IMG/VR virus record: IMGVR_UViG_3300009702_000017
Span: 1-36,314 of that record
Direction: 5' to 3' (one strand)
Length of the DNA stretch: 36,314 nt
Origin: a virus
Shown here: positions 1,960 through 34,377 of the stretch, piece by piece
Position numbering within the stretch: position 1 is the first letter of the stretch
How the letters are laid out: the number at the start of each line of letters is the position of its first letter
Translations under genes and position numbers: made by a program
The notes under the pieces: generated by a model
Told to the model about the DNA's origin: nothing
Database searches by the model: none
Seen by the model: only the letters and a program-made list of their open reading frames with translations

Positions 1960-4518
1960 ATGCCATTAGGTAGTGGACCAAGTGAGAAGCAGCTACGGTT
2001 TGTGATGTACGTAGACGAGCAGTCTGTGCACAAGGCCAGACGGCTCGTCAAGGATCTCACAGATGACGTGCGCAAACTTGTTGAAACTACTCAACGAGTC
2101 AACCTTGGTGGATTTGGTGGTGTTGGTGGCGGAGGTGGCTTCCGTGGCAATACCACAGTGACCAGTGGACCCGCAGCTGCTTCTAATGCAGCGGGTACAG
2201 CAACAAACAATGCCACCGACAATCTCATACAGACTCTCACAAAGCACAAGGAGGTGTTCCGAAGCATCGCCACCGGATCCAAGGATGCGATGAAGGTTAT
2301 GGATGATGCCATGCGCTCATCCGTTCAAGACCAGAAGCAGCAGATCAGGGATCTCCAGAACTCCATCAAGTCCCTGTCACAGTCGTATAAAGACCTCGGG
2401 CAGTTCTCCAAGTCTCTCGAAGGTATTCCTGGTCAAGAAGGTGTGCAGCGTAGACTGCACCAGGACCGACAGGGAATGCTCAACCAGATTGCCGAACAGA
2501 TGGTCAGCAGGTCGAAGGGAGAGCAGAACCTTGCTACCCTCCGCTCTATTGGCATCCAGCAGATTGCTGGTCGCTCTGGCCAGAACTTCGTCAATCCAAA
2601 GCTAGGTCTCTTCCAGCGTGCGTTTGGTATGCGTCAGACAAACTTGGCGACAGGGCAGACAAGTGGTGGAGTTGGAGACTTCATGCGTAGGCGGCGCAGG
2701 TTGCCCTTTTCCTTCGGTGCGGGGGTTGTGGGTGCAACGGGGCTGTGGGCACTCCATACGGGTGTAGCCGAAGAGCTTCGTGAGCCTACCGACATCTTGC
2801 GTCAACACCAAACGCTGGCTGGATTTGGTAGCGCAGCAGTTGCTACTCGTGCGGGTGACTACACTACTGAATGGACTCTCTCACATATGGATCAAGCCGA
2901 TATGGCAGGGCTGAAGCGCATCCTAGGAGGTGGTCAGAAGTTTGCGCGATACATAAAAGCTATCGAAGCGAGTCCTGGTAATTGGGCGGCTAACCTCATG
3001 GACTTGCCAGCGCAGCAAAAGGCAGCTGCGATGAAGTACATTACGGGGTTGAAGGCAAAGCACCCTCTTACGATGCAGCGACTTCGTGAAGCTAGCCAGA
3101 CTGCCGAAGGGCGTGTAGCGGAGATGCGTGCAACTGGCCTTGGTGATAGCTATGATAAAGTCGGTAACTTCATGGGCAATGCGTCTAACAAGTTTGTGGA
3201 TAAGCTCACTACCAATGGCGCTTATACCAGAGGCCAAGTGTTAGCTGCCTTCAGACAAGAGGCGGCGGCGGGTGGCCGTGGAACAGCGCAACATCAACTC
3301 GGTGGTGCACTCTATGCTCAGGCTGGAGGATTCCACAACGCAGGCGGCTTCGCCGGTATCATGGCAATGGGTGGCCTCTCTCCTGATGAGGCATTGAATC
3401 GGATGGGGTCTATTACGGGCCCTCGAAAGAATGGTGGCGTCGATGTTGAAGCTGTCAACAAGATGGGCGACGTGATCATGCAACAGATGCTCAACGGTAC
3501 ACCCGTCACTACCGGTACTGGCATGATGGGTATGTTCGGTGGCCGTGCATGGCAGGGTGGTAACGCCGCCCAAGACATGAAGTACGCCCGATTCGCCCAG
3601 CAGGGAATGGACACAGGAACCCAATTCCTCAAGGGTGGACCAGATGCCTATCAGCATGGATTGAACCTACTACTGGCAATCAAGCATGGTAAGGGATTGG
3701 GTATTTATGCGCAGAACTATCTCGCTGGTCACCTCAACATGAACCTAATAGCACAGGCTATGTCTGGGGGTAAGTTGCCCGCCGAGATGGCGGCCAGAGG
3801 CATCACCCGTGGCATGATTAGTGGGATGGGACGAGATGTACTGAGCAGCTTCATGATGCGTCGGCTACATGATGGCGATCCACGTAACAAGCTGATGAAC
3901 ACCATCCAAAAGGATTTTGGTGGAGATGTCGTACGCTTCCTCCACTCGAAGCATGGCAAGGAGCTAAACCAAGACATCGTAAGCCTTGGTACTGCATTCC
4001 ATGACACAATGGGAATGGGAACCGAAATGGGCGACGAGAACATGATGCGGATGCTCGCCACTATAGGTGACTATAGCCATTCTCGTAAGTGGTCTCACAA
4101 GCATGGCCGTGGGTTCTATGATCCCTCAAGTGGAAGCGCCTCGGCCAGCGCTGCCAAGCAACACGCAAGAGCACAGCAAGATCTAGACGTATGGATGGAT
4201 CACTTCAAGGGCTCTGTTAAGACTATGACAACCGGCGCAGATACGGTTGCGGAAAAGCTCAATGACGTAGCCTCGGATCTCTCGATCACCGCTGGACAGC
4301 TAACAGATAGTTTGGTTGGAATCACGGCCGCATTTAAAGAAGCCAGAAGTGCATTGGAATCTGGAAAGAGCGAATCACAAAGCGAATTCCATAAGAATGT
4401 CGAAGTGCGCATCCACGCTGCAAACAGCGCAAGAGTAACGGCCAAGGCAAACGCAAAGCTTCATTCAGCTTTGGTTCCTGCGGTAAATGGAATCGATCCT
4501 TCCTCTAGGATACGGTAA
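1960..4518 (+). CDS. Tape measure protein-like
   Basis: 852 aa, Gly/Ala/Met-rich with coiled-coil-like stretches; lies between chaperones and baseplate genes; TAATG coupling to the next gene. Confidence 0.7.
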   Translation: MPLGSGPSEKQLRFVMYVDEQSVHKARRLVKDLTDDVRKLVETTQRVNLGGFGGVGGGGGFRGNTTVTSGPAAASNAAGTATNNATDNLIQTLTKHKEVFRSIATGSKDAMKVMDDAMRSSVQDQKQQIRDLQNSIKSLSQSYKDLGQFSKSLEGIPGQEGVQRRLHQDRQGMLNQIAEQMVSRSKGEQNLATLRSIGIQQIAGRSGQNFVNPKLGLFQRAFGMRQTNLATGQTSGGVGDFMRRRRRLPFSFGAGVVGATGLWALHTGVAEELREPTDILRQHQTLAGFGSAAVATRAGDYTTEWTLSHMDQADMAGLKRILGGGQKFARYIKAIEASPGNWAANLMDLPAQQKAAAMKYITGLKAKHPLTMQRLREASQTAEGRVAEMRATGLGDSYDKVGNFMGNASNKFVDKLTTNGAYTRGQVLAAFRQEAAAGGRGTAQHQLGGALYAQAGGFHNAGGFAGIMAMGGLSPDEALNRMGSITGPRKNGGVDVEAVNKMGDVIMQQMLNGTPVTTGTGMMGMFGGRAWQGGNAAQDMKYARFAQQGMDTGTQFLKGGPDAYQHGLNLLLAIKHGKGLGIYAQNYLAGHLNMNLIAQAMSGGKLPAEMAARGITRGMISGMGRDVLSSFMMRRLHDGDPRNKLMNTIQKDFGGDVVRFLHSKHGKELNQDIVSLGTAFHDTMGMGTEMGDENMMRMLATIGDYSHSRKWSHKHGRGFYDPSSGSASASAAKQHARAQQDLDVWMDHFKGSVKTMTTGADTVAEKLNDVASDLSITAGQLTDSLVGITAAFKEARSALESGKSESQSEFHKNVEVRIHAANSARVTAKANAKLHSALVPAVNGIDPSSRIR

Positions 4519-7599: not shown

Positions 7600-8153
7600 T
7601 GGTTGCAACACTCACAGATCCAGCCAACGATGTCATTGAAGACGTAGACTCACAGCTTGATGATGTCTTTGCTAATGGAGTTTCGGTGAATGGTTCTACG
7701 GTCGGGCCGTTTCCAAGCTACAACGAGAGCTTTCTGACAAAGGCCAACAAGTCCCTCATTCGGGATACGTATCGACTCGCATTGGCAGGTCTGTTGAAGT
7801 CACTTGGTAAGCTACGACCAAGGTGGATTGCGCTAAACACTCTCAATGGATGGACTGTCAAAAACTACATCTTATACGAACTACCGTCTTACTCCGTGGA
7901 CGTATTCGGAAGAGTTAGGATGCGCGGCAGGATTCAAGGGACAAGTACCAATGTCCCCGTCGTTGTATTGCCATCTGGCGCTCGTCCGCAAAAAGAGCAC
8001 GCTTTCGTTGTTGCTTCCGACCCTACAGGCAGCGCAAGTGGGAGTGGGTCTGCTACCATAAAGGTGCTATCAAATGGACAGGTGGTTGTGACTCGAATGC
8101 CAAAGACACCAGACTGGATCTCACTTGATACAGTCTCATTTGATGCAATCTAG
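7599..8153 (+). CDS. Minor tail / fibre-associated protein
   Basis: Start reassigned to ATG 7599 (TAATG overlap). C-terminal W..L.NGW...GRVRMRGRI...LPSGARP...WISLDTVSF beta-domain is typical of tail-fibre C-termini. Confidence 0.65.
   Translation: MVATLTDPANDVIEDVDSQLDDVFANGVSVNGSTVGPFPSYNESFLTKANKSLIRDTYRLALAGLLKSLGKLRPRWIALNTLNGWTVKNYILYELPSYSVDVFGRVRMRGRIQGTSTNVPVVVLPSGARPQKEHAFVVASDPTGSASGSGSATIKVLSNGQVVVTRMPKTPDWISLDTVSFDAI
8146..8153 (+). promoter_or_regulatory. Putative late-promoter motif CAATCTAG (leaderless spacing)
   Basis: The C lies 13 nt before ATG 8159; no SD sequence. Confidence 0.6.
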
Positions 8154-22533: not shown

Positions 22534-22845
22534 ATGGACAGACAACAGGCAGAGTGGGCCGCAAACATCATCAGACAGGTGGTACAGCGACGCAAGGAGA
22601 AGTTCGAAACCGCCAATATTCTACGTACCCAAATGGTACGTCAAATCAATGCCGGACAGAAGCCAACTGGCTATCGTGCACATTGGCACTACGAATCAGC
22701 CAAGGAACTCAGAGACAAGCTCGTTGAGATTGCCACGCGCTTCAACGCAGAGCATCCCTACGATGTAGCTACTATCACAGACCTGATTGACATCCTCCAT
22801 ACGACTGCCGGGCAATTCAAGCAGGCAATCCAGGGAACGGACTAG
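22534..22845 (+). CDS. Hypothetical protein antisense within the structural block (103 aa)
   Basis: Fills the gap exactly; shares a CTAG stop overlap with 22842..23669. Confidence 0.7.
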   Translation: MDRQQAEWAANIIRQVVQRRKEKFETANILRTQMVRQINAGQKPTGYRAHWHYESAKELRDKLVEIATRFNAEHPYDVATITDLIDILHTTAGQFKQAIQGTD

Positions 22846-23669
22846 ACCCACTGGATCACATAGTCAAGGACCATGGGGGCGATTTTGTCTTCCCATTCCT
22901 TGAGCGCCCACTCGGCTCCCTCGTCAAGAAAATTCTTGGGCTCTAGTCCGGGGTGAACCCACTTGCCGGTTCCCTTCTGCTTGCTGGATGCGACCCTGAA
23001 GGTCATGATAGACCGTTGTACATGGGGCTTGCCCTGCTTGTCATTGGTCATGCGCTGATAGACCGAGATACCCTGTAGAAAAGGTGTACCTGTCCAACCC
23101 TGCTTCACATCCCCGATTGACCCTCGACCTTGGCCCGGTCCCTCACGGGTCTTCTTGGGCTGATTCATGATGTTGAAGGTGTGCAGCTTCCCGAGCATGG
23201 GCTTGCCGTTCTCCCCCCTTTCAATTGTACCAAACGGAATCCCCGCCTTCTTGAACGCAGCCTTGATGGTGCTGGTTAGATCCTGCTGTGCTGGCGTAGA
23301 GTTCGTGGGGCCAAGTCCAGGTCCATGTCTGAATGGCACGACAATGTACTTGCTACCATCTTTTGCGGTCTTTGCCTTTGGAGACTTCAGTAGATCGTCC
23401 AACATCTCATGCTCTGGCATACCATCTTCAATCCACCTGGCAGAAGCATCGAGCGTGATCATCCACACACCATCTACCTCCTTCATGTGCAGGGACTCCA
23501 GGTACTTCTCTCTTCTGCTGTGGAGAGACTGCTGTACCTTCTCAAGGATGTGCCCGTACGTCGCAGCGGTAAGCTGTTGAACGGCTGTGTCCATGGCTTT
23601 CTCCGCTGCGTCTGGAAGCCTGTCTGTAAACTGCTCTAACTCACTAAAATCTACGTTGATGTGAAACAT
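22842..23669 (-). CDS. Neck / virion morphogenesis protein (gp10-like)
   Basis: ARWIEDG, DGSKYIVVPFRH, IMTFRVASSK and WVHPGLEPKNF motifs seen in large-myovirus neck proteins. Confidence 0.65.
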   Translation of the reverse strand: MFHINVDFSELEQFTDRLPDAAEKAMDTAVQQLTAATYGHILEKVQQSLHSRREKYLESLHMKEVDGVWMITLDASARWIEDGMPEHEMLDDLLKSPKAKTAKDGSKYIVVPFRHGPGLGPTNSTPAQQDLTSTIKAAFKKAGIPFGTIERGENGKPMLGKLHTFNIMNQPKKTREGPGQGRGSIGDVKQGWTGTPFLQGISVYQRMTNDKQGKPHVQRSIMTFRVASSKQKGTGKWVHPGLEPKNFLDEGAEWALKEWEDKIAPMVLDYVIQWV

Positions 23670-23670
23670 G

Positions 23671-26229
23671 TTACCTACCGTTCGGGTTACGTGAAGAGAT
23701 TGGGTGGCCTTCCTGCGACATTATCATTCCATCTCGTACCTGCACCCACGAAACAGTGCCGTCCGAATGCTCTACTTTGATCTGCCCAACCTTCCTAGTA
23801 CCACCTGGGCCCGCATCCTTCACGCTTCCCACTGGTAGATTCAAGTGATGGTGCGCTGGCGCTCCTGGCATCGGCAGATTACCAATACCTGACTTATCGA
23901 GACCTTGTTCTGACGAGTGAGAATGTACATCATACTTCCCTGGCTCAACAATATGCTCTCGTTCCTCCCTGAAGGGGTTTGAGCCAGCCCCCGAGGCATT
24001 CCCATACATGTGCGGAATGCTCACAATACTAGACTGAGGAATCCAAGCGCCAAGGAACTCCGACTTACTATCTGGATCCCAAAAGTTCTCGTTAACGTAC
24101 TTGCTATCGGGGGACCATGAGCTACGGCTTGGAATCGATACCTTTCCAGGAGCGGATTCGAAATCTACATCATATGGGTGTGCCGCTCTCCACATCAAAA
24201 ACTCCCGTTCGTTTGTAGTTGGATTCATCCGAACATCAGTGAGCCCATGAAGACGATGCAACCCGCGCTTCAAAAGGTTCTGCTCATCTTCACCATCTTC
24301 ATCCATCCTTGGAATTTCTTCTTTAGCAGATTCACCGTTATGTTGCCAAAACTCAATCTCGGATCTTGGCTCTACGGAACTTGGGGTTGCAGGCGCAAGT
24401 CTCTTCATCGCACCATCAGCCTTGTCCAACGACTCCTCTGACTTTAAGGTGTACTCGTAAGGCCCGTATGCATCGTCATACGCCTCGGGAGGCATACCGG
24501 GCTCCGTACCCTGTCCGATCTTCCTCTTGTTGATTCTCGGTGTTTCCAAGTACTCTAGTCCATGCTTCCTTGCCAATGATTCATGAACTCGTTGTGCCAT
24601 GGAAGAATGGGTGTCGCCAATAACGTACCTTGCACCGTGCTTGTGATAAGCATGAGCGTAAACGGCCTCGTATAGCGGATTCCCGAGACCCTTACCATGA
24701 AGGGCTGGGGGGAGCTGTACATAGTCTACAGACAGACTTGGCGCATCATCTTCTGCATCATCATCAAGGTAAGCACTCAAGTTATGGTATGGGTCGATGG
24801 CCATATCCTTGAAATACAAATTGCTTCTAAGTCCATGTCCATCGTCACTAACATACAGCTTGTAGCCTTCCGCCCTACGCTCTGGGGGCAATAGATGTGA
24901 GTAGTCGTAGCGCTTATTTCTTCGACCTGGGTAAGCTCCATCAATCTTTCCCGCTGGAATATCTGCGATAGCCATTTTTTCAAGTGACTCTTCTGACTTC
25001 TGAAACCGTGTGAACGCTTCTGTTACGAACTTGTGAGTACGGTAGTAATCGGGATCCTCTTTCAGATGCGCCCAAGCAATCTTGCCAGTCTTGAGGGGAT
25101 CAAAGTTGGCGATATTGGTCTGTGGATCCTCGCTATGCTCTACCTCAACCGCCATTCCAAGATGAAAGTCGTTGAGAGTGAACTGCTCATTATCGAAGTC
25201 AATACCGAGGGCTCTAGCTGTCTCGTCAGCCTCTTTCGAAGACACACCGTCCCTAAGGTTCACTGCATTGTCATGGACCTGTGCAGGTTGTCCACCAAAC
25301 TCGCCATTCTCCTCTTGAGGCGCACCAGTAGGATCGCCTGCACCCTCAACAGGATCTCCCATGTCCGCCTTATCAAGTGGCTCTGGAACTGACCCTAGCG
25401 ATCCTTCAACACGCTCAATGCGAAACTTACCGGACTCTGAAGCCCGACCCCTTTCCCTGGAATGTTTCTTGAGGGAGCGTGCCATGTCAATGACCGAATG
25501 AGTCATCATCATAAGCGTATTGTAAGCATCCGGGTCTGTCTGCTTTAGCTGCCCTAGCTGGGGGGCCTTTGCTTTGATCTGCTTCAACGCATCTACGACA
25601 CGTTGCTTGGCCATCTCAAGCGTCTGGTCATCTACGGCTGTGTTGGTCGCCTCCTTCTCATGCGTGGCCTGCGCAAGCTCGTGTAGCCGGTCATGGAAGT
25701 CCTTCGCCGCATCACCATGGTCTTCAGGTCGTTCGTCTTCTGACTTTCCAATGGGATCATCCGTAAAGGCTTTTTGCTCGGGAAGTTCCTTTAGATACTC
25801 ATCTCCGATCTTGTCTAGCTCGCCCTGACTCTTGTACTTCTCCTGGGCGCGTTGATACTCTTCGGCTGCCTCGTCGGTCCACAGAACGATGCGATTGCCA
25901 CCCCGTAGCTTGGCGACCATAAGGGCTTTGTCCCCTTCGGAGAGCTTGTAGCCAATGCCTACAGACAGGGTAGCGCCTACAGCCTTCTGGTACTTGCGCT
26001 GGACCTCTGGTAGATTTGCCACTTTGGCAGCAGGTACTCGCACCCGGGCTTCATCTCCCCCATAGGAGATCACCGTACCTCCAGATGAACGAACCCAATC
26101 GGCCACCACCTCATTGCCATGCTCGATTGCACGGCTGATTCGACGCAGCCCAGCTTCATCGTCGTTATGAGCAGCCCGCCCCACACGACTACCGATTTTA
26201 TCGCCGTCCACCGCTACATATAGGTCCAT
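23671..26229 (-). CDS. Polyvalent protein: mCpol-like + DUF5661 + GNAT + ADP-ribosyltransferase-like domains
   Basis: aa1-117 YVAVDGDKIG..SYGGDE..TLSVGIG..ALMVAK; aa~328-398 GMAVEVEH..KIAWAHLKEDPDYY; aa~419-595 LPPALHGKGLGNPLY; aa~604-770 WR..SSWS..EEREHIV. Confidence 0.8.
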   Translation of the reverse strand: MDLYVAVDGDKIGSRVGRAAHNDDEAGLRRISRAIEHGNEVVADWVRSSGGTVISYGGDEARVRVPAAKVANLPEVQRKYQKAVGATLSVGIGYKLSEGDKALMVAKLRGGNRIVLWTDEAAEEYQRAQEKYKSQGELDKIGDEYLKELPEQKAFTDDPIGKSEDERPEDHGDAAKDFHDRLHELAQATHEKEATNTAVDDQTLEMAKQRVVDALKQIKAKAPQLGQLKQTDPDAYNTLMMMTHSVIDMARSLKKHSRERGRASESGKFRIERVEGSLGSVPEPLDKADMGDPVEGAGDPTGAPQEENGEFGGQPAQVHDNAVNLRDGVSSKEADETARALGIDFDNEQFTLNDFHLGMAVEVEHSEDPQTNIANFDPLKTGKIAWAHLKEDPDYYRTHKFVTEAFTRFQKSEESLEKMAIADIPAGKIDGAYPGRRNKRYDYSHLLPPERRAEGYKLYVSDDGHGLRSNLYFKDMAIDPYHNLSAYLDDDAEDDAPSLSVDYVQLPPALHGKGLGNPLYEAVYAHAYHKHGARYVIGDTHSSMAQRVHESLARKHGLEYLETPRINKRKIGQGTEPGMPPEAYDDAYGPYEYTLKSEESLDKADGAMKRLAPATPSSVEPRSEIEFWQHNGESAKEEIPRMDEDGEDEQNLLKRGLHRLHGLTDVRMNPTTNEREFLMWRAAHPYDVDFESAPGKVSIPSRSSWSPDSKYVNENFWDPDSKSEFLGAWIPQSSIVSIPHMYGNASGAGSNPFREEREHIVEPGKYDVHSHSSEQGLDKSGIGNLPMPGAPAHHHLNLPVGSVKDAGPGGTRKVGQIKVEHSDGTVSWVQVRDGMIMSQEGHPISSRNPNGR

Positions 26230-26234
26230 GCCTC

Positions 26235-26242
26235 AAAGATTG
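26235..26242 (-). promoter_or_regulatory. Putative late-promoter motif CAATCTTT (leaderless spacing)
   Basis: 13 nt before ATG 26229. Confidence 0.6.
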
Positions 26243-28213: not shown

Positions 28214-28301
28214 CCTATCGAGTAGGTGCCTGGAAGTGGGTAGATTTCAATAGTGAAGAGGGCTGGAAGTACCGGGAAGAGAGGGGTATCGAGTGATGAA
28301 C

Positions 28302-28359
28302 AAGGAACAAAAATGATTGTCATACACCACATCAACGGAACCGAAATCTATACCAGCCA
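28302..28359 (+). repeat. 58-bp exact dispersed repeat, partner of 452..509
   Basis: Direct sequence comparison. Confidence 0.95.
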
Positions 28360-29353
28360 AGCAACTACTAACGTCAAGAAGGCTCTTGAGGAGGGAGTCA
28401 AGAAGGGAGTTCCTTTCGAGGGTGCCAATCTGGAAGGTACCTATCTGGCTGGTGCCAATCTGACTGATGCCAATCTGACTAATGCCAATCTGGCCAGTGC
28501 CAATCTGGTTGGTGCCAATCTGACTGGTGCCGATCTGACTGGTGCCGATCTGAAGTATGCCAATCTGGAGGGTGCCTATCTGGCTGGTGCCAATCTGGCC
28601 AGTGCCAATCTGGTTGGTGCCAATCTGAAGAATGTCGATCTGGAAGCTGCCTATCTGAAGGGCACCAATCTGACTGGTGCCGATCTGACTGGTGCCGATC
28701 TGAAGTATGCCAATCTGGAGGGTGCCTATCTGGCTGGTGCCAATCTGGCTAGTGCCAATCTGGAAGGTGCCGATCTGAAGAATGTCAATCTGGCCAGTGT
28801 CGATCTGGCCAGTGCCGATCTGACTGGGGCCTATCTGGTTGGTGCCAATCTGAAGAATGCCAATCTGGAAGCTGCCTATCTGAAGGGTGCCGATCTGAAG
28901 TATGCCAATCTGAAGTATGCCAATCTAAAGGGTGCCGATCTGGATGGTGCCAATCTGAAGGGTATCAATCTGGAAGGTGCCGATCTGATTGGTACCGATC
29001 TGGCCGGCACCAATCTGACTAACGCTATTCTGATTGGTGCCGATCTGGATGGTGCCAATCTGAAGAATGCCAATCTGGCCGGTGCCGATCTGGAAGGTGC
29101 CAATCTGGTCAGTGCCGATCTGACTGGTGCCTATCTGAAGAATGTCGATCTGGGTGGTGCCAATCTGAAGGGGGGCTATCTGGCTGGTGCCTATCTGGCT
29201 GGTGCCTATCTGGCTGGTGCCAATCTGGCTAGTGCCAATCTGGAAGGTGCCGATCTGAAGGGCGCCGATCTGACTGGTGCCAATCTGAAGAATGCCAATC
29301 TGACTGGTGCCGATCTGAAGAATGCCAATCTGGAAGGGTGCCTGCCTGCTTGA
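28313..29353 (+). CDS. Pentapeptide-repeat protein, copy B (346 aa)
   Basis: Start fixed by identity with copy A; about 60 A(N/D/Y)Lxx repeats encoded by a 15-bp unit resembling GGTGCCAATCTGNNN. Confidence 0.95.
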
Positions 29354-29517: not shown

Positions 29518-29991
29518 ATGAAGAAGACTGGATTGTACATTGCCCTTTTCATAACCGTCGCTGGTATCTTGACGGCACTCACCGTGGCTGCCGGCATTGT
29601 CTGGCGGCCCCTCGCATTCATTGTGCTTGGGCTTACGAGCTTGCCAACTGTGCTGTGGGGTACTAACCAGATTGACACCAAGGTCTTTGGTGCCAACACG
29701 GCAGACCTTCCGACCACCACGCTGTTCCGAGATACCAAGGATCTTGTAGCCAACGCCCGCTTTGACGTGGAGCACACCGTCAAGGACATCGTTGGCGAGA
29801 TTGCTGGCCTACATGCCAGCGAAGTGCACCTAGAGCATACCCTGGCAACCGATCTGAAGCTCGGAGAGAAGGACATCCACGAAGTCCTGTTTACTGTCGA
29901 AGCAGAGCTTCGGGTTGAGGCGACCACCATCGACAAGGCAACCGTGAAGACAGTCGGAGACCTCGTGAACTGGGTAAAGACTCACATCTAA
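29518..29991 (+). CDS. Membrane-anchored acyl-carrier-protein-like protein lacking the DSL serine
   Basis: Two N-terminal hydrophobic helices. The C-terminal ~75 aa align by eye to AcpP (VKDIVGE..EV..E..L..DL...E...VE.E......KTVGDLVNWV), but DLGADSLD is replaced by DLKLGEKD. Confidence 0.75.
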   Translation: MKKTGLYIALFITVAGILTALTVAAGIVWRPLAFIVLGLTSLPTVLWGTNQIDTKVFGANTADLPTTTLFRDTKDLVANARFDVEHTVKDIVGEIAGLHASEVHLEHTLATDLKLGEKDIHEVLFTVEAELRVEATTIDKATVKTVGDLVNWVKTHI

Positions 29992-32797: not shown

Positions 32798-33022
32798 ATG
32801 GACAAGACTGCTAGAACCGAAGAAGCTCAACAGGCTTGGAGAGAGGCGCAGCGACAAGCGTACCAATGTACGCTGGCAATCGTGACCGCCAAGACCCGCG
32901 ACGAAGAACTGGAGGCGCGTGAGCGCTACGACAAGTCCCTACACGACCTTTCGGTCACCAAGAGCTTGTTCGATTCCTCGCGGACCCGTGACAAGGCTTT
33001 AGGCCACCCCATGGAAGCCTAG
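32798..33022 (+). CDS. Small helical protein antisense within the head block
   Basis: ATG after GGGGG; shares a CTAG stop overlap with 33019..34377. Confidence 0.6.
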   Translation: MDKTARTEEAQQAWREAQRQAYQCTLAIVTAKTRDEELEARERYDKSLHDLSVTKSLFDSSRTRDKALGHPMEA

Positions 33023-34377
33023 AAGCCGGCCCAGAGGGCATTGATCACTTTGTCCACGGGTCTGGTCTTCGCAAGCCCTTGGATGCGCTCAAGACGCGCT
33101 ACGCTCGAAGAGGGATTGATCCCATACGAGCGAAGCTCCTCTCCGAGTTCAATGCCAGACAGGGAATCCACCCATGCCTTCAAGGTGTCTCTCGCGGACT
33201 GTGAGACGGTGGGTAGGTACTGTAGCTTCTCCTTTGGAGGAAGCTTGTGGAATTCCTTTGGCGCGGCGTAGCGTAGGTAGTACGGTACAAAGCTAAGTTT
33301 GTCCCGACCGGGGTTGAAGCCTGGACCTGCAAAGGCAGAGCCATGGTCAATAAGTCGTACCGTGAGTGATTCTGGATCTACCATGAGGTTCTGGGCATGG
33401 CCATCGGGGTTGCCACACACATAGTCCAATACGGCCCATTTGTGAAGTGTCCCATCGAGATACGGCTGAAACACCCTCGACGCGAAACCAGGGTCATTCT
33501 CATAACGATAGATAGTCTGGAACTTCCACGGAAGCAACCGGATGGCAGCAAACTCCTTGCCGTTTAGGAGCAGGAGGTTCGCCTCCGGTACCCAATCGCC
33601 TAGTCCCCATCGGTCAGCCACAGCTGAAAATGCCGCCTCTCTAACCGGCTGTGAGGCTTGTTCCTCGCCCACACCTGCCGCCGGAGAGACGGCACCCCAG
33701 TCCGGCTTCAAAAGATAGCTATGTCCCTCGGGGTCCTTAGCGAGCAGTGATCCTGTCGAGTGCTTGCCCGGCAATGTGACAGGCTGAGCAACCCCCTCTT
33801 CGAAGGAGCGGGAGACACCGATGGCAGCCTCTTGGTCACGCGGGGCAACCGCCTCTACCACCACACGCTCTGGTACTCCAGCTGACCTACCCAGAGCCTT
33901 GTTGAGGTCTGCTACGGCATCCAACGCGCTCAAGTGCTCTTCGGATGGATCTAGACCATAGGCTCGTAGTGCCGCAGAACGAATGTCGCCCCCCTCATGA
34001 TAGAGAGCATGCCTCATCGACTCTAGGTTGAGCGTATGCCTAGAGCCCGTCAAGAACTTGGCAGCTGCAAACGCATCGTAGAGGTGAGGAACGAATCCGT
34101 GCATATCGCGGAGAGTCCGGTTGGTACTTGCCTTTAGATTATCACTCTTAGCCAAGGCGCCTTCCCACTCCGCAGACGAATCCGACCCGACGATCCGAAT
34201 ACTCACAGCCTGCATACGATCCAAAGCGTCGATTAGTTCTTCGAGGGACCAATGGTACGCCTCAGCCTGCTCCTTGAACCATGGGAACTTCTGTAGGAGA
34301 GCCGCCTCCAACTGGGCTGGCGTACCAGCCATCGGTTCGTTCTCTCCTAGGTAATGGTGGTCAATCTCGATCTTCAT
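33019..34377 (-). CDS. PI3/4-kinase/HipA-like atypical kinase with N-terminal extension
   Basis: YLLKP, REAA, LDYVCGNPDGHAQNLMV and LIDHG motifs; LAKS and LNKA linkers upstream of the domain. Confidence 0.8.
   Translation of the reverse strand: MKIEIDHHYLGENEPMAGTPAQLEAALLQKFPWFKEQAEAYHWSLEELIDALDRMQAVSIRIVGSDSSAEWEGALAKSDNLKASTNRTLRDMHGFVPHLYDAFAAAKFLTGSRHTLNLESMRHALYHEGGDIRSAALRAYGLDPSEEHLSALDAVADLNKALGRSAGVPERVVVEAVAPRDQEAAIGVSRSFEEGVAQPVTLPGKHSTGSLLAKDPEGHSYLLKPDWGAVSPAAGVGEEQASQPVREAAFSAVADRWGLGDWVPEANLLLLNGKEFAAIRLLPWKFQTIYRYENDPGFASRVFQPYLDGTLHKWAVLDYVCGNPDGHAQNLMVDPESLTVRLIDHGSAFAGPGFNPGRDKLSFVPYYLRYAAPKEFHKLPPKEKLQYLPTVSQSARDTLKAWVDSLSGIELGEELRSYGINPSSSVARLERIQGLAKTRPVDKVINALWAGF

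Follow-up and report, generated by a model that had tools for sequence, protein, structure and literature searches.

The window analysed here, 36,314 nucleotides in length, covers the first 36 kb of an IMG/VR virus record that is 121 kb long (IMGVR_UViG_3300009702_000017; estimated completeness ∼74%), and the source phage is a large uncultured relative of Myxococcus phage Mx1. An earlier note, made from the letters of the window, had placed an mCpol domain at 25879–26229, at the start of a putative virion protein. The plus-strand translation of this segment is riddled with stops; its minus-strand reading gives residues 1–117 of an open reading frame (ORF) of 852 amino acids at 23671–26229 (−), which lies between the head and tail genes of the record. 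The domain does form the extreme N-terminus of a long late-type phage protein whose gene lies among those for the particle. We describe the product (P0001) as a polyvalent late protein headed by mCpol, on the basis of the ORF and its translation and of full-length relatives that share its N-terminal, middle and C-terminal parts; PHROGs contained no family for the protein. Two further ORFs, at 1960–4518 (tape-measure-like) and 34379–36937 (NUDIX), are also exactly 852 amino acids long and were considered as duplicates of it. This was ruled out, as the three sequences are unrelated and show no mutual similarity; the shared length is apparently a coincidence.

The mCpol palm domain occupies residues 4–115 (25885–26220, −), with the catalytic residues D8 and D10 and the hairpin G57-G58-D59-E60, and was identified by Pfam, AlphaFold2 (AF2), Foldseek and residue conservation. 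The four motifs quoted in the earlier note are all there: YVAVDGDKIG at residues 4–13, VISYGGDE at 53–60, TLSVGIG at 87–93 and ALMVAKLRGGNRI at 102–114, an agreement well outside what chance would give. Pfam mCpol (PF18182) matches residues 4–115 with 55.2 bits (cut-off 26.4; E = 1.1e-14) over profile positions 1–112 of 114, and the same match scores 60 bits in a six-frame search of the record. The top PADLOC model for the protein is the mCpol end of CARF_HEPN_mCpol. In the PDB, phmmer finds the OptS/mCpol structures 9mnr, 9pd0 and 9nwn at E = 1.2e-5, without gaps over residues 3–119. An AF2 model of residues 1–128, built from an alignment of 74 relatives, has a predicted local distance difference test score (pLDDT) of 97.6, and its strand and helix order E-H-H-E-E-H-E-H-E is that of the minimal palm (RRM-like) fold with five strands and four helices. 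According to Foldseek, the model is most similar to KpOptS (9pd0_C; E = 4.4e-9, template-modelling (TM) score 0.82/0.87, r.m.s.d. 1.9 Å). The top six matches are all OptS/mCpol chains (TM 0.80–0.87, r.m.s.d. ∼2 Å), followed by GGDEF, Cas10 and class III cyclases.

The related palm families fit less well. GGDEF (PF00990) is absent from the Pfam matches at E ≤ 1, the nearest entry being GGDEF_GdpP (PF24898; 15.5 bits against a cut-off of 30), and GGDEF structures superpose worse on the model than OptS (TM 0.55–0.71 in Foldseek). The architecture is not that of Cas10, which has two palms together with HD, Zn-ribbon and D4 domains and works in a Csm or Cmr complex: the phage protein has only one palm, Cas10-Cmr2_palm2 reaches 23 bits and so stays below its cut-off of 27, and the PADLOC Cas10 match (E = 0.009) covers one palm. 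The comparison by profile and by structure that the earlier note had proposed therefore returns a palm domain closest to OptS, and its assignment of the domain to mCpol, with both acidic motifs intact, agrees with the Pfam score, the PDB matches and the presence of D8 and D59. It is confirmed that the N-terminus carries an mCpol palm domain with the OptS fold.

A HMMER search with residues 1–125 as the query against 1.84 billion cluster representatives returned 888 proteins at E ≤ 1e-3 (representatives at 50% identity), 627 of them at E ≤ 1e-10, mostly from metagenomic phage. The exhaustive search was needed to reveal the family, as a word-index protein search gave only one or two relatives. 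No close relative was found by blastn against 50,697 phage records, and none by a peptide-pattern search of viral contigs with six patterns or by a search of genome contigs with two patterns taken from an alignment of 12 close members. A tblastn search of the phage records gave Mx1 alone, plus one match confined to DUF5661. The relatives lie on contigs of up to 179 kb, which is the size class of Mx1, the only cultured relative. In nearly all of the best 150 members mCpol starts at residue 1 and is followed by 200–1200 more residues; in five members it starts at about residue 85–140, behind N-terminal extensions without a Pfam match. Member lengths span 135–1297 residues around a conserved frame that consists of the N-terminal mCpol, a helical middle (130/150) and a C-terminal module of ∼60 residues (124/150). 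Variable cargo lies between these parts. Other segments occur sporadically among these 150 (GNAT-like in 24, DUF5661 in four and a counterpart of residues 600–780 in two); of 71 members scanned with Pfam, at least nine carry GNAT families, six carry DUF5661, and ART-PolyVal and a PI3/PI4-kinase occur in one each. Judged from the sequences, the ORF belongs to a large family of apparently late proteins of Mx1-like large myoviruses. The definition of mCpol reportedly goes back to Burroughs et al. 2015, a paper outside the literature that we searched; within that literature no description of this phage mCpol family was found.

The gap-free alignment with KpOptS places the functional residues in register. 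In KpOptS the metals are held by D6 and D57, both of them required for activity, and S30 and N34 point towards the base of the substrate that the adjacent protomer binds (Sullivan et al., PMC12657218); these residues correspond to D8, D59, S32 and E36, respectively, in the phage protein. Among 151 members, again representatives from a library clustered at 50% identity, D59 and E60 are present in all 151, G58 in 150, D10 and K107 in 149 each and D8 in 145, and G57-G58 is nearly invariant. The acidic residues are thus conserved among the phage homologues, the opposite of a finding that the earlier note had named as fatal to its reading. The base-facing position 32 is Ser in 101 members, Asp in 29 and Ala in 11, and position 36 is Asp, Glu or Asn across the family. 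These counts show strong purifying selection, as read from the alignment, on the catalytic residues (D8, D59 and the GGDE hairpin) across the family. The pattern is the one that is expected of an enzyme whose chemistry would be kept while its substrate or product drifts.

A model with two copies of mCpol gave an ipSAE of 0.66, compared with 0.01 for the best control, with contacts that were 100% alike in three runs and a partner pLDDT of 92. Of 30 proteins solved as one-chain pairs, 20 came up to that mark, as did one of 23 solved as single chains. The predicted interface takes in the GGDE hairpin (54–60) and the helix of S32 (28–35), and the model supports a putative symmetric dimer like that of OptS; as the OptS complex has already been solved, the score may reflect likeness to OptS and is not independent proof.

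In the full-length AF2 model the confident regions are mCpol, the helices of residues 174–260, residues 437–565 and residues 800–852, with disorder between them. The family-conserved helical region (residues 119–260; 25450–25875, −) is represented by matches to residues 130–330 in the 130 members mentioned above and is also present in Mx1; the pLDDT of its helices at 174–260 is 81–95, and it carries the motif E-x-x-K-[LI]-x-D-E-Y-L, in which K140 is invariant and E137 and Y145 are near-invariant. A DUF5661 module (PF18905; E = 8.3e-10, 39.3 bits, cut-off 27) follows at residues 334–397 (25039–25230, −) and is left unfolded in the full-length model. Residues ∼437–565 (24535–24921, −; pLDDT 80–92) form a GNAT-type acetyltransferase module. 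Pfam gives no direct GNAT match for this copy; the assignment comes from a profile of 16 homologous segments, which matches acetyltransferases in the PDB (3owc, E = 8e-4; 6yug, E = 4e-3), from Acetyltransf_1 matches to the homologous segments of two members (P0104 and P0012) and from GNAT fold matches in BFVD.

Residues ∼614–775 (23905–24390, −) may be an R-S-E ADP-ribosyltransferase, as judged from an Atlas lead and a motif. The Atlas's own model of this region resembles DraT (TM 0.52) and the MuF-DRAT/ADPrib_exo_Tox clusters (TM 0.48), and R681, S-W-S (as S-W-S/T) and E-R-E (as E-x-E) are conserved with the sole homologue, P0069. The region had no match in Pfam and nothing meaningful in a PDB profile search, and residues 600–790 are unfolded in the full-length AF2 model; the reading stays tentative because sequence profiles do not support it. 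The C-terminal β module (residues 795–852; 23674–23847, −; pLDDT 81–93) ends in ISSRNPNGR. It is family-conserved, with 124 of the 150 members matching residues 780–852, and also occurs in Mx1. A Pro, a Gly and the S-R-N-P stretch are invariant, the ending in the family is SSRNPGG(K/R), and a profile of the module found nothing meaningful in the PDB. The polypeptide thus combines at least two unrelated enzymatic domains (mCpol, DUF5661, GNAT and the possible ADP-ribosyltransferase).

The modules are separated by linkers that carry a recurrent motif, L-[DE]-K-[A/S/M]. It occurs as L285-D-K-A (25366–25377, −), a possible head-protease site in a stretch with pLDDT below 50, as L416-E-K-M (24973–24984, −) in the low-confidence linker 416–435, as L601-D-K-A (24418–24429, −) in the low-confidence linker 587–622 and as L777-D-K-S (23890–23901, −) directly before the C-terminal module. 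All four sites thus fall within disordered linkers at module borders. In the family, L[DE]K[SA] was seen 64 times against 10 expected (∼6-fold enrichment), and most members have an L-x-K-[ASG] motif before the C-terminal module.

The gene stands in a conserved neck-module order. One base separates its stop codon from the ATG of a gene for 275 residues (22842–23669, −), probably an HK97-gp10-like neck or tail-completion protein (phrog_16819, E = 8e-20; Atlas leads HK97-gp10_like and Phage_tail_S). A gene for 273–300 residues also follows the mCpol gene in Mx1 and in two contigs with relatives (L003 and L011), and in two others (L004 and L013) a gene for 290 residues lies further downstream, beyond inserted opposite-strand genes. 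In the window, genes for 332 and 531 residues come after the 275-residue gene, and then tail sheath and tube; the order of mCpol gene, ∼275, ∼100, ∼330 and ∼530–1100 residues, sheath and tube is found here, in Mx1 and in L011. L004 keeps the order with opposite-strand genes inserted and with no ∼100-residue gene called.

Upstream on the same strand are a virion structural protein (phrog_1004), two PI3/PI4-kinase-like proteins and a NUDIX-DUF3626-kinase protein. The last of these (34379–36937 of the record, −; 852 residues) has NUDIX (E = 2.8e-21), DUF3626 (E = 1e-15) and a PI3/PI4-kinase-like C-terminus, and a kinase-like protein of 452 residues (33019–34377) comes next after it; in Mx1 the corresponding position is occupied by a 1480-residue ‘NUDIX hydrolase’ and a ‘kinase’. 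In one relative, P0003 (816 residues; L003 7376–9826, a contig of GCA_034680565.1), an intact mCpol is joined directly to a PI3/PI4-kinase-like domain. Set against the separate upstream kinase genes of the window, this fusion indicates that modules move between neighbouring late proteins. A small opposite-strand insert between the head-side and the neck-side late genes holds a gene (28253–29353, +) for a 366-residue protein that consists almost wholly of pentapeptide repeats (E = 1.5e-96 for Pfam Pentapeptide). Since Qnr, MfpA and other proteins of this type are DNA mimics, an anti-restriction or gyrase-directed role is conceivable for it. The 157-residue ORF beside it (29518–29991, +) has a weak match to phrog_5934 (acyl carrier protein; E = 1.2e-5).

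The start codon of the mCpol gene is the end of a CAATCT-N7-ATG element (26227–26242, −), which was recognized by motif count as a shared late-gene leader or promoter-like signal. The window contains six such elements (at 8146, 15163, 22510, 22521, 26242 and 31474) compared with 0.46 expected, and none of 100 shuffles reached six. Each ends in a plausible late-gene start codon, the other matches being at the starts of tail or neck genes. The element points to a common promoter or leader that leaves hardly any space for a ribosome-binding site at the normal distance, and several listed ORF starts at, for example, 22521, 15192 and 31516 should probably be replaced by a downstream ATG.

The earlier note had seen no CARF, SAVED or 2TM partner beside the gene, and Pfam and PHROGs scans of the neighbouring ORFs likewise gave none. 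Searches of the whole 121-kb record, itself only ∼74% complete, for SAVED, for PADLOC CARF_HEPN_mCpol and for Cap15_CD_rec found only the mCpol itself. The record does encode other genes of polyvalent type, namely the NUDIX-DUF3626-kinase protein, ART-PolyVal, GGDEF and a Clp-type protease, and the GGDEF gene lies in the head module. Among the matches listed for the remainder of the record (36315–121050, L005–L009) are GGDEF, ART-PolyVal, the Clp-type protease, Kelch repeats and a Cpn60 chaperonin, as well as peptide deformylase, an RF-1 domain, DNA polymerase III α, ribonucleotide reductase and thymidylate synthase.

The closest characterized relatives are the OptS proteins of Panoptes (KpOptS and VnOptS; PMC12657218, PMC12657230). 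The phage domain shares with them the minimal palm of ∼115 residues (the TM scores of 0.82/0.87 given above), the catalytic Asp pair, the base-recognition Ser and the lack of a sensor domain, and a symmetric dimer of the OptS kind is predicted for it. The differences are in the setting and in the details of the site. OptS is a free 14-kDa protein from a bacterial defence island, whereas the mCpol described here is phage-encoded and fused to ∼730 residues of further modules; OptS has AAD where the phage protein keeps the canonical GGDE hairpin; the identity is ∼26%; and the base-facing N34 of KpOptS is replaced by E36. A Panoptes locus is an operon of mCpol with an effector of the S-2TMβ/Cap15 type or the CARF-TM type, located in a bacterial chromosome and often beside CBASS. 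Here the gene is in a virus record, and OptE or a CARF-TM effector gene was found neither among its neighbours nor in the whole record. The phage GGDEF cyclases (Gp350 of Bacillus phage G, that of SP-15 and the record's own) are likewise phage-borne palm nucleotide cyclases and are structural neighbours in BFVD, but they have a full GGDEF domain of ∼170 residues with extra helices and belong to another family.

In its overall construction the protein resembles the polyvalent proteins of phages, which are proposed to be delivered at invasion, with GGDEF domains that could disturb nucleotide signalling in the host (Iyer et al. 2017, PMC5512222); the word mCpol does not occur in that paper. As in those proteins, unrelated enzyme domains are united in one polypeptide and shuffled between orthologues (GNAT, ART-PolyVal and kinase), and a domain that generates cyclic nucleotides is included. 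This swapping of cargo between related members is a defining trait of polyvalent proteins. In contrast to them, the present protein has no MuF, SNF2 or methylase core and has its own frame, at a fixed place by the neck genes. The Mx1 protein (WNM70340.1; OR576727.2, 33963–35369) has the orthologous frame in the same genomic place, with the same neighbours up to the tail sheath, and is 28% identical to the target over 276 residues and 36% over 103 residues. It differs in its length of 468 residues, without cargo inserts, and in having SWSIDH for VDGDK and LGAV for GGDE.

The explanation towards which we lean, though with only modest confidence, is that this is a polyvalent late protein that bears a constitutive nucleotide cyclase and is probably packaged in the virion. 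The mCpol domain would pair as OptS does, with one protomer binding the triphosphate and the metals and the other binding the base through S32 and E36, and would make a cyclic di- or oligonucleotide, probably containing adenine, from nucleoside triphosphates. Its synthesis is taken to be constitutive because there is no sensor domain. The protein would be synthesized late, be packed into the particle and enter the cell together with the DNA, and the head protease may cut it into modules at the L-[DE]-K-[A/S/M] linkers; late synthesis, packaging and delivery are suggested by the position of the gene, the polyvalent architecture and the motif, which each of the disordered linkers contains. In the host, the cyclase would thus be at work from the very start of infection, perturbing nucleotide-based signalling or immunity.

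Several observations weigh against this explanation. Packaging, cleavage and injection are all inferred from sequence; for no Mx1-like phage was a virion proteome found, and the Pfam scan recognized neither MuF nor another known capsid-targeting domain in the protein. The Mx1 copy has lost D8, D59 and E60 and scores 24.4 bits, which is under the Pfam cut-off. As the frame is kept in Mx1 with a dead site, the role of the frame needs no catalysis, and catalysis appears from the alignments to have been lost at least a few times in the family. The residue that faces the adenine N6 in KpOptS, N34, is E36 here and varies between Asp, Glu and Asn among the relatives, so that the choice of substrate is not readable from the sequence. 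No host or guard system could be tied to this genome, and searches of the 121-kb record yielded neither a CARF, SAVED or Cap15-type receptor nor a Tad2 sponge or 2H phosphodiesterase; nothing in the genome thus points to a particular pathway.

Alternatively, the cyclase might be active but not packaged. The late protein would then act inside the already infected cell, where it might reset the c-di-NMP physiology of the host, block superinfection or time lysis, and its position by the neck genes would reflect co-regulation only. The conserved catalytic residues and the late-type leader motif suit this account, as do the lack of a recognized capsid-targeting domain, the additional GGDEF cyclase of the record and the fact that in several relatives the gene begins its own transcription unit after opposite-strand genes. 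We nevertheless consider it doubtful: cargo such as ART-PolyVal, GNAT and kinase is characteristic of proteins that are delivered at invasion (PMC5512222), the conservation of the terminal modules and the enrichment of the linker motif speak for assembly and processing, and co-regulation alone does not need the strict synteny with the neck genes across distant relatives. The fold might instead have been co-opted as a dimerization or assembly module of a neck-associated scaffold for which a signalling nucleotide is of no importance. Mx1, in which the whole frame persists around a dead active site, shows that this can happen; in addition, D8 is replaced in four of the 151 members, conservation extends jointly over the N-terminal, middle and C-terminal modules as in a structural protein, and the symmetric dimer is predicted well above its controls. 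It is difficult to reconcile with the invariance of D59 and E60, the retention of D8 in 96% of the 151 members and the near-invariance of G57-G58 and K107, since a purely structural role would not preserve metal ligands so strictly. The variation centres instead on the base-specificity positions 32 and 36, as in the active Panoptes mCpols (PMC12657218). We thus judge a scaffold role to be unlikely for the family. The structural co-option that the earlier note had allowed for holds for the Mx1 copy, with its lost D8, D59 and E60, and is improbable for the copy in the window.

The earlier note had also proposed a counter to decoy guards, which we regard as a long shot. A delivered mCpol would supply the inhibitory nucleotide (2′,3′-c-di-AMP, cA3 or similar) that silences Panoptes-type effectors, and the phage, in this improbable case, could turn sponges or nucleases on CBASS or type III CRISPR while the guard stays untriggered. 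The variant in which mCpol swamps CARF or SAVED receptors with an analogue that does not activate them seems just as far-fetched. The enzyme belongs to the OptS family and keeps the adenine-type Ser at the specificity position, it has no sensor and is expected to be constitutive, and the authors of the Panoptes work anticipate a counter-move by phages, one still to be discovered (PMC12657218); no report of a phage mCpol or an anti-Panoptes factor was found in the literature searched. On the other hand, with neither a Tad2 sponge nor a 2H phosphodiesterase found in the record there is nothing to cover for, no guard system could be tied to the host, and the copy number from a single injection may not be high enough to matter. 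The phage clade is also far from OptS, and the 26% identity together with GGDE in place of AAD argues that the domain is not a recent capture of a host optS. That phages inject a constitutive mCpol to make the guard nucleotide, or an analogue that blocks CARF, SAVED or Cap15 receptors, is accordingly a speculative idea to which we give little credence.

In Panoptes the constant output of mCpol keeps a toxic effector silent, and mCpol has so far been studied only as the bacterial half of this guard. Both mCpol enzymes and phage polyvalent proteins are known; their combination, its scale and the fixed neck-module frame are undescribed in the literature searched. The family adds a viral mCpol lineage of 888 clusters at 50% identity that is catalytically conserved and forms part of late proteins with several enzymes, encoded next to neck genes. 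Should the domain turn out to be inactive or to serve structure alone, what is left is one further family of polyvalent proteins. If it is active and delivered, phages would also make immune nucleotides, beyond degrading or sequestering them; this would be a new class of counter-defence or host takeover, and the phage answer predicted by the Panoptes authors would become testable. Should the product prove to be the guard nucleotide, or a close analogue that blocks the receptors, it would be the first known phage counter-measure that works by synthesis, rather than removal, of an immune second messenger. The family further offers a collection of exchangeable phage effector modules, bounded by a possible protease code.

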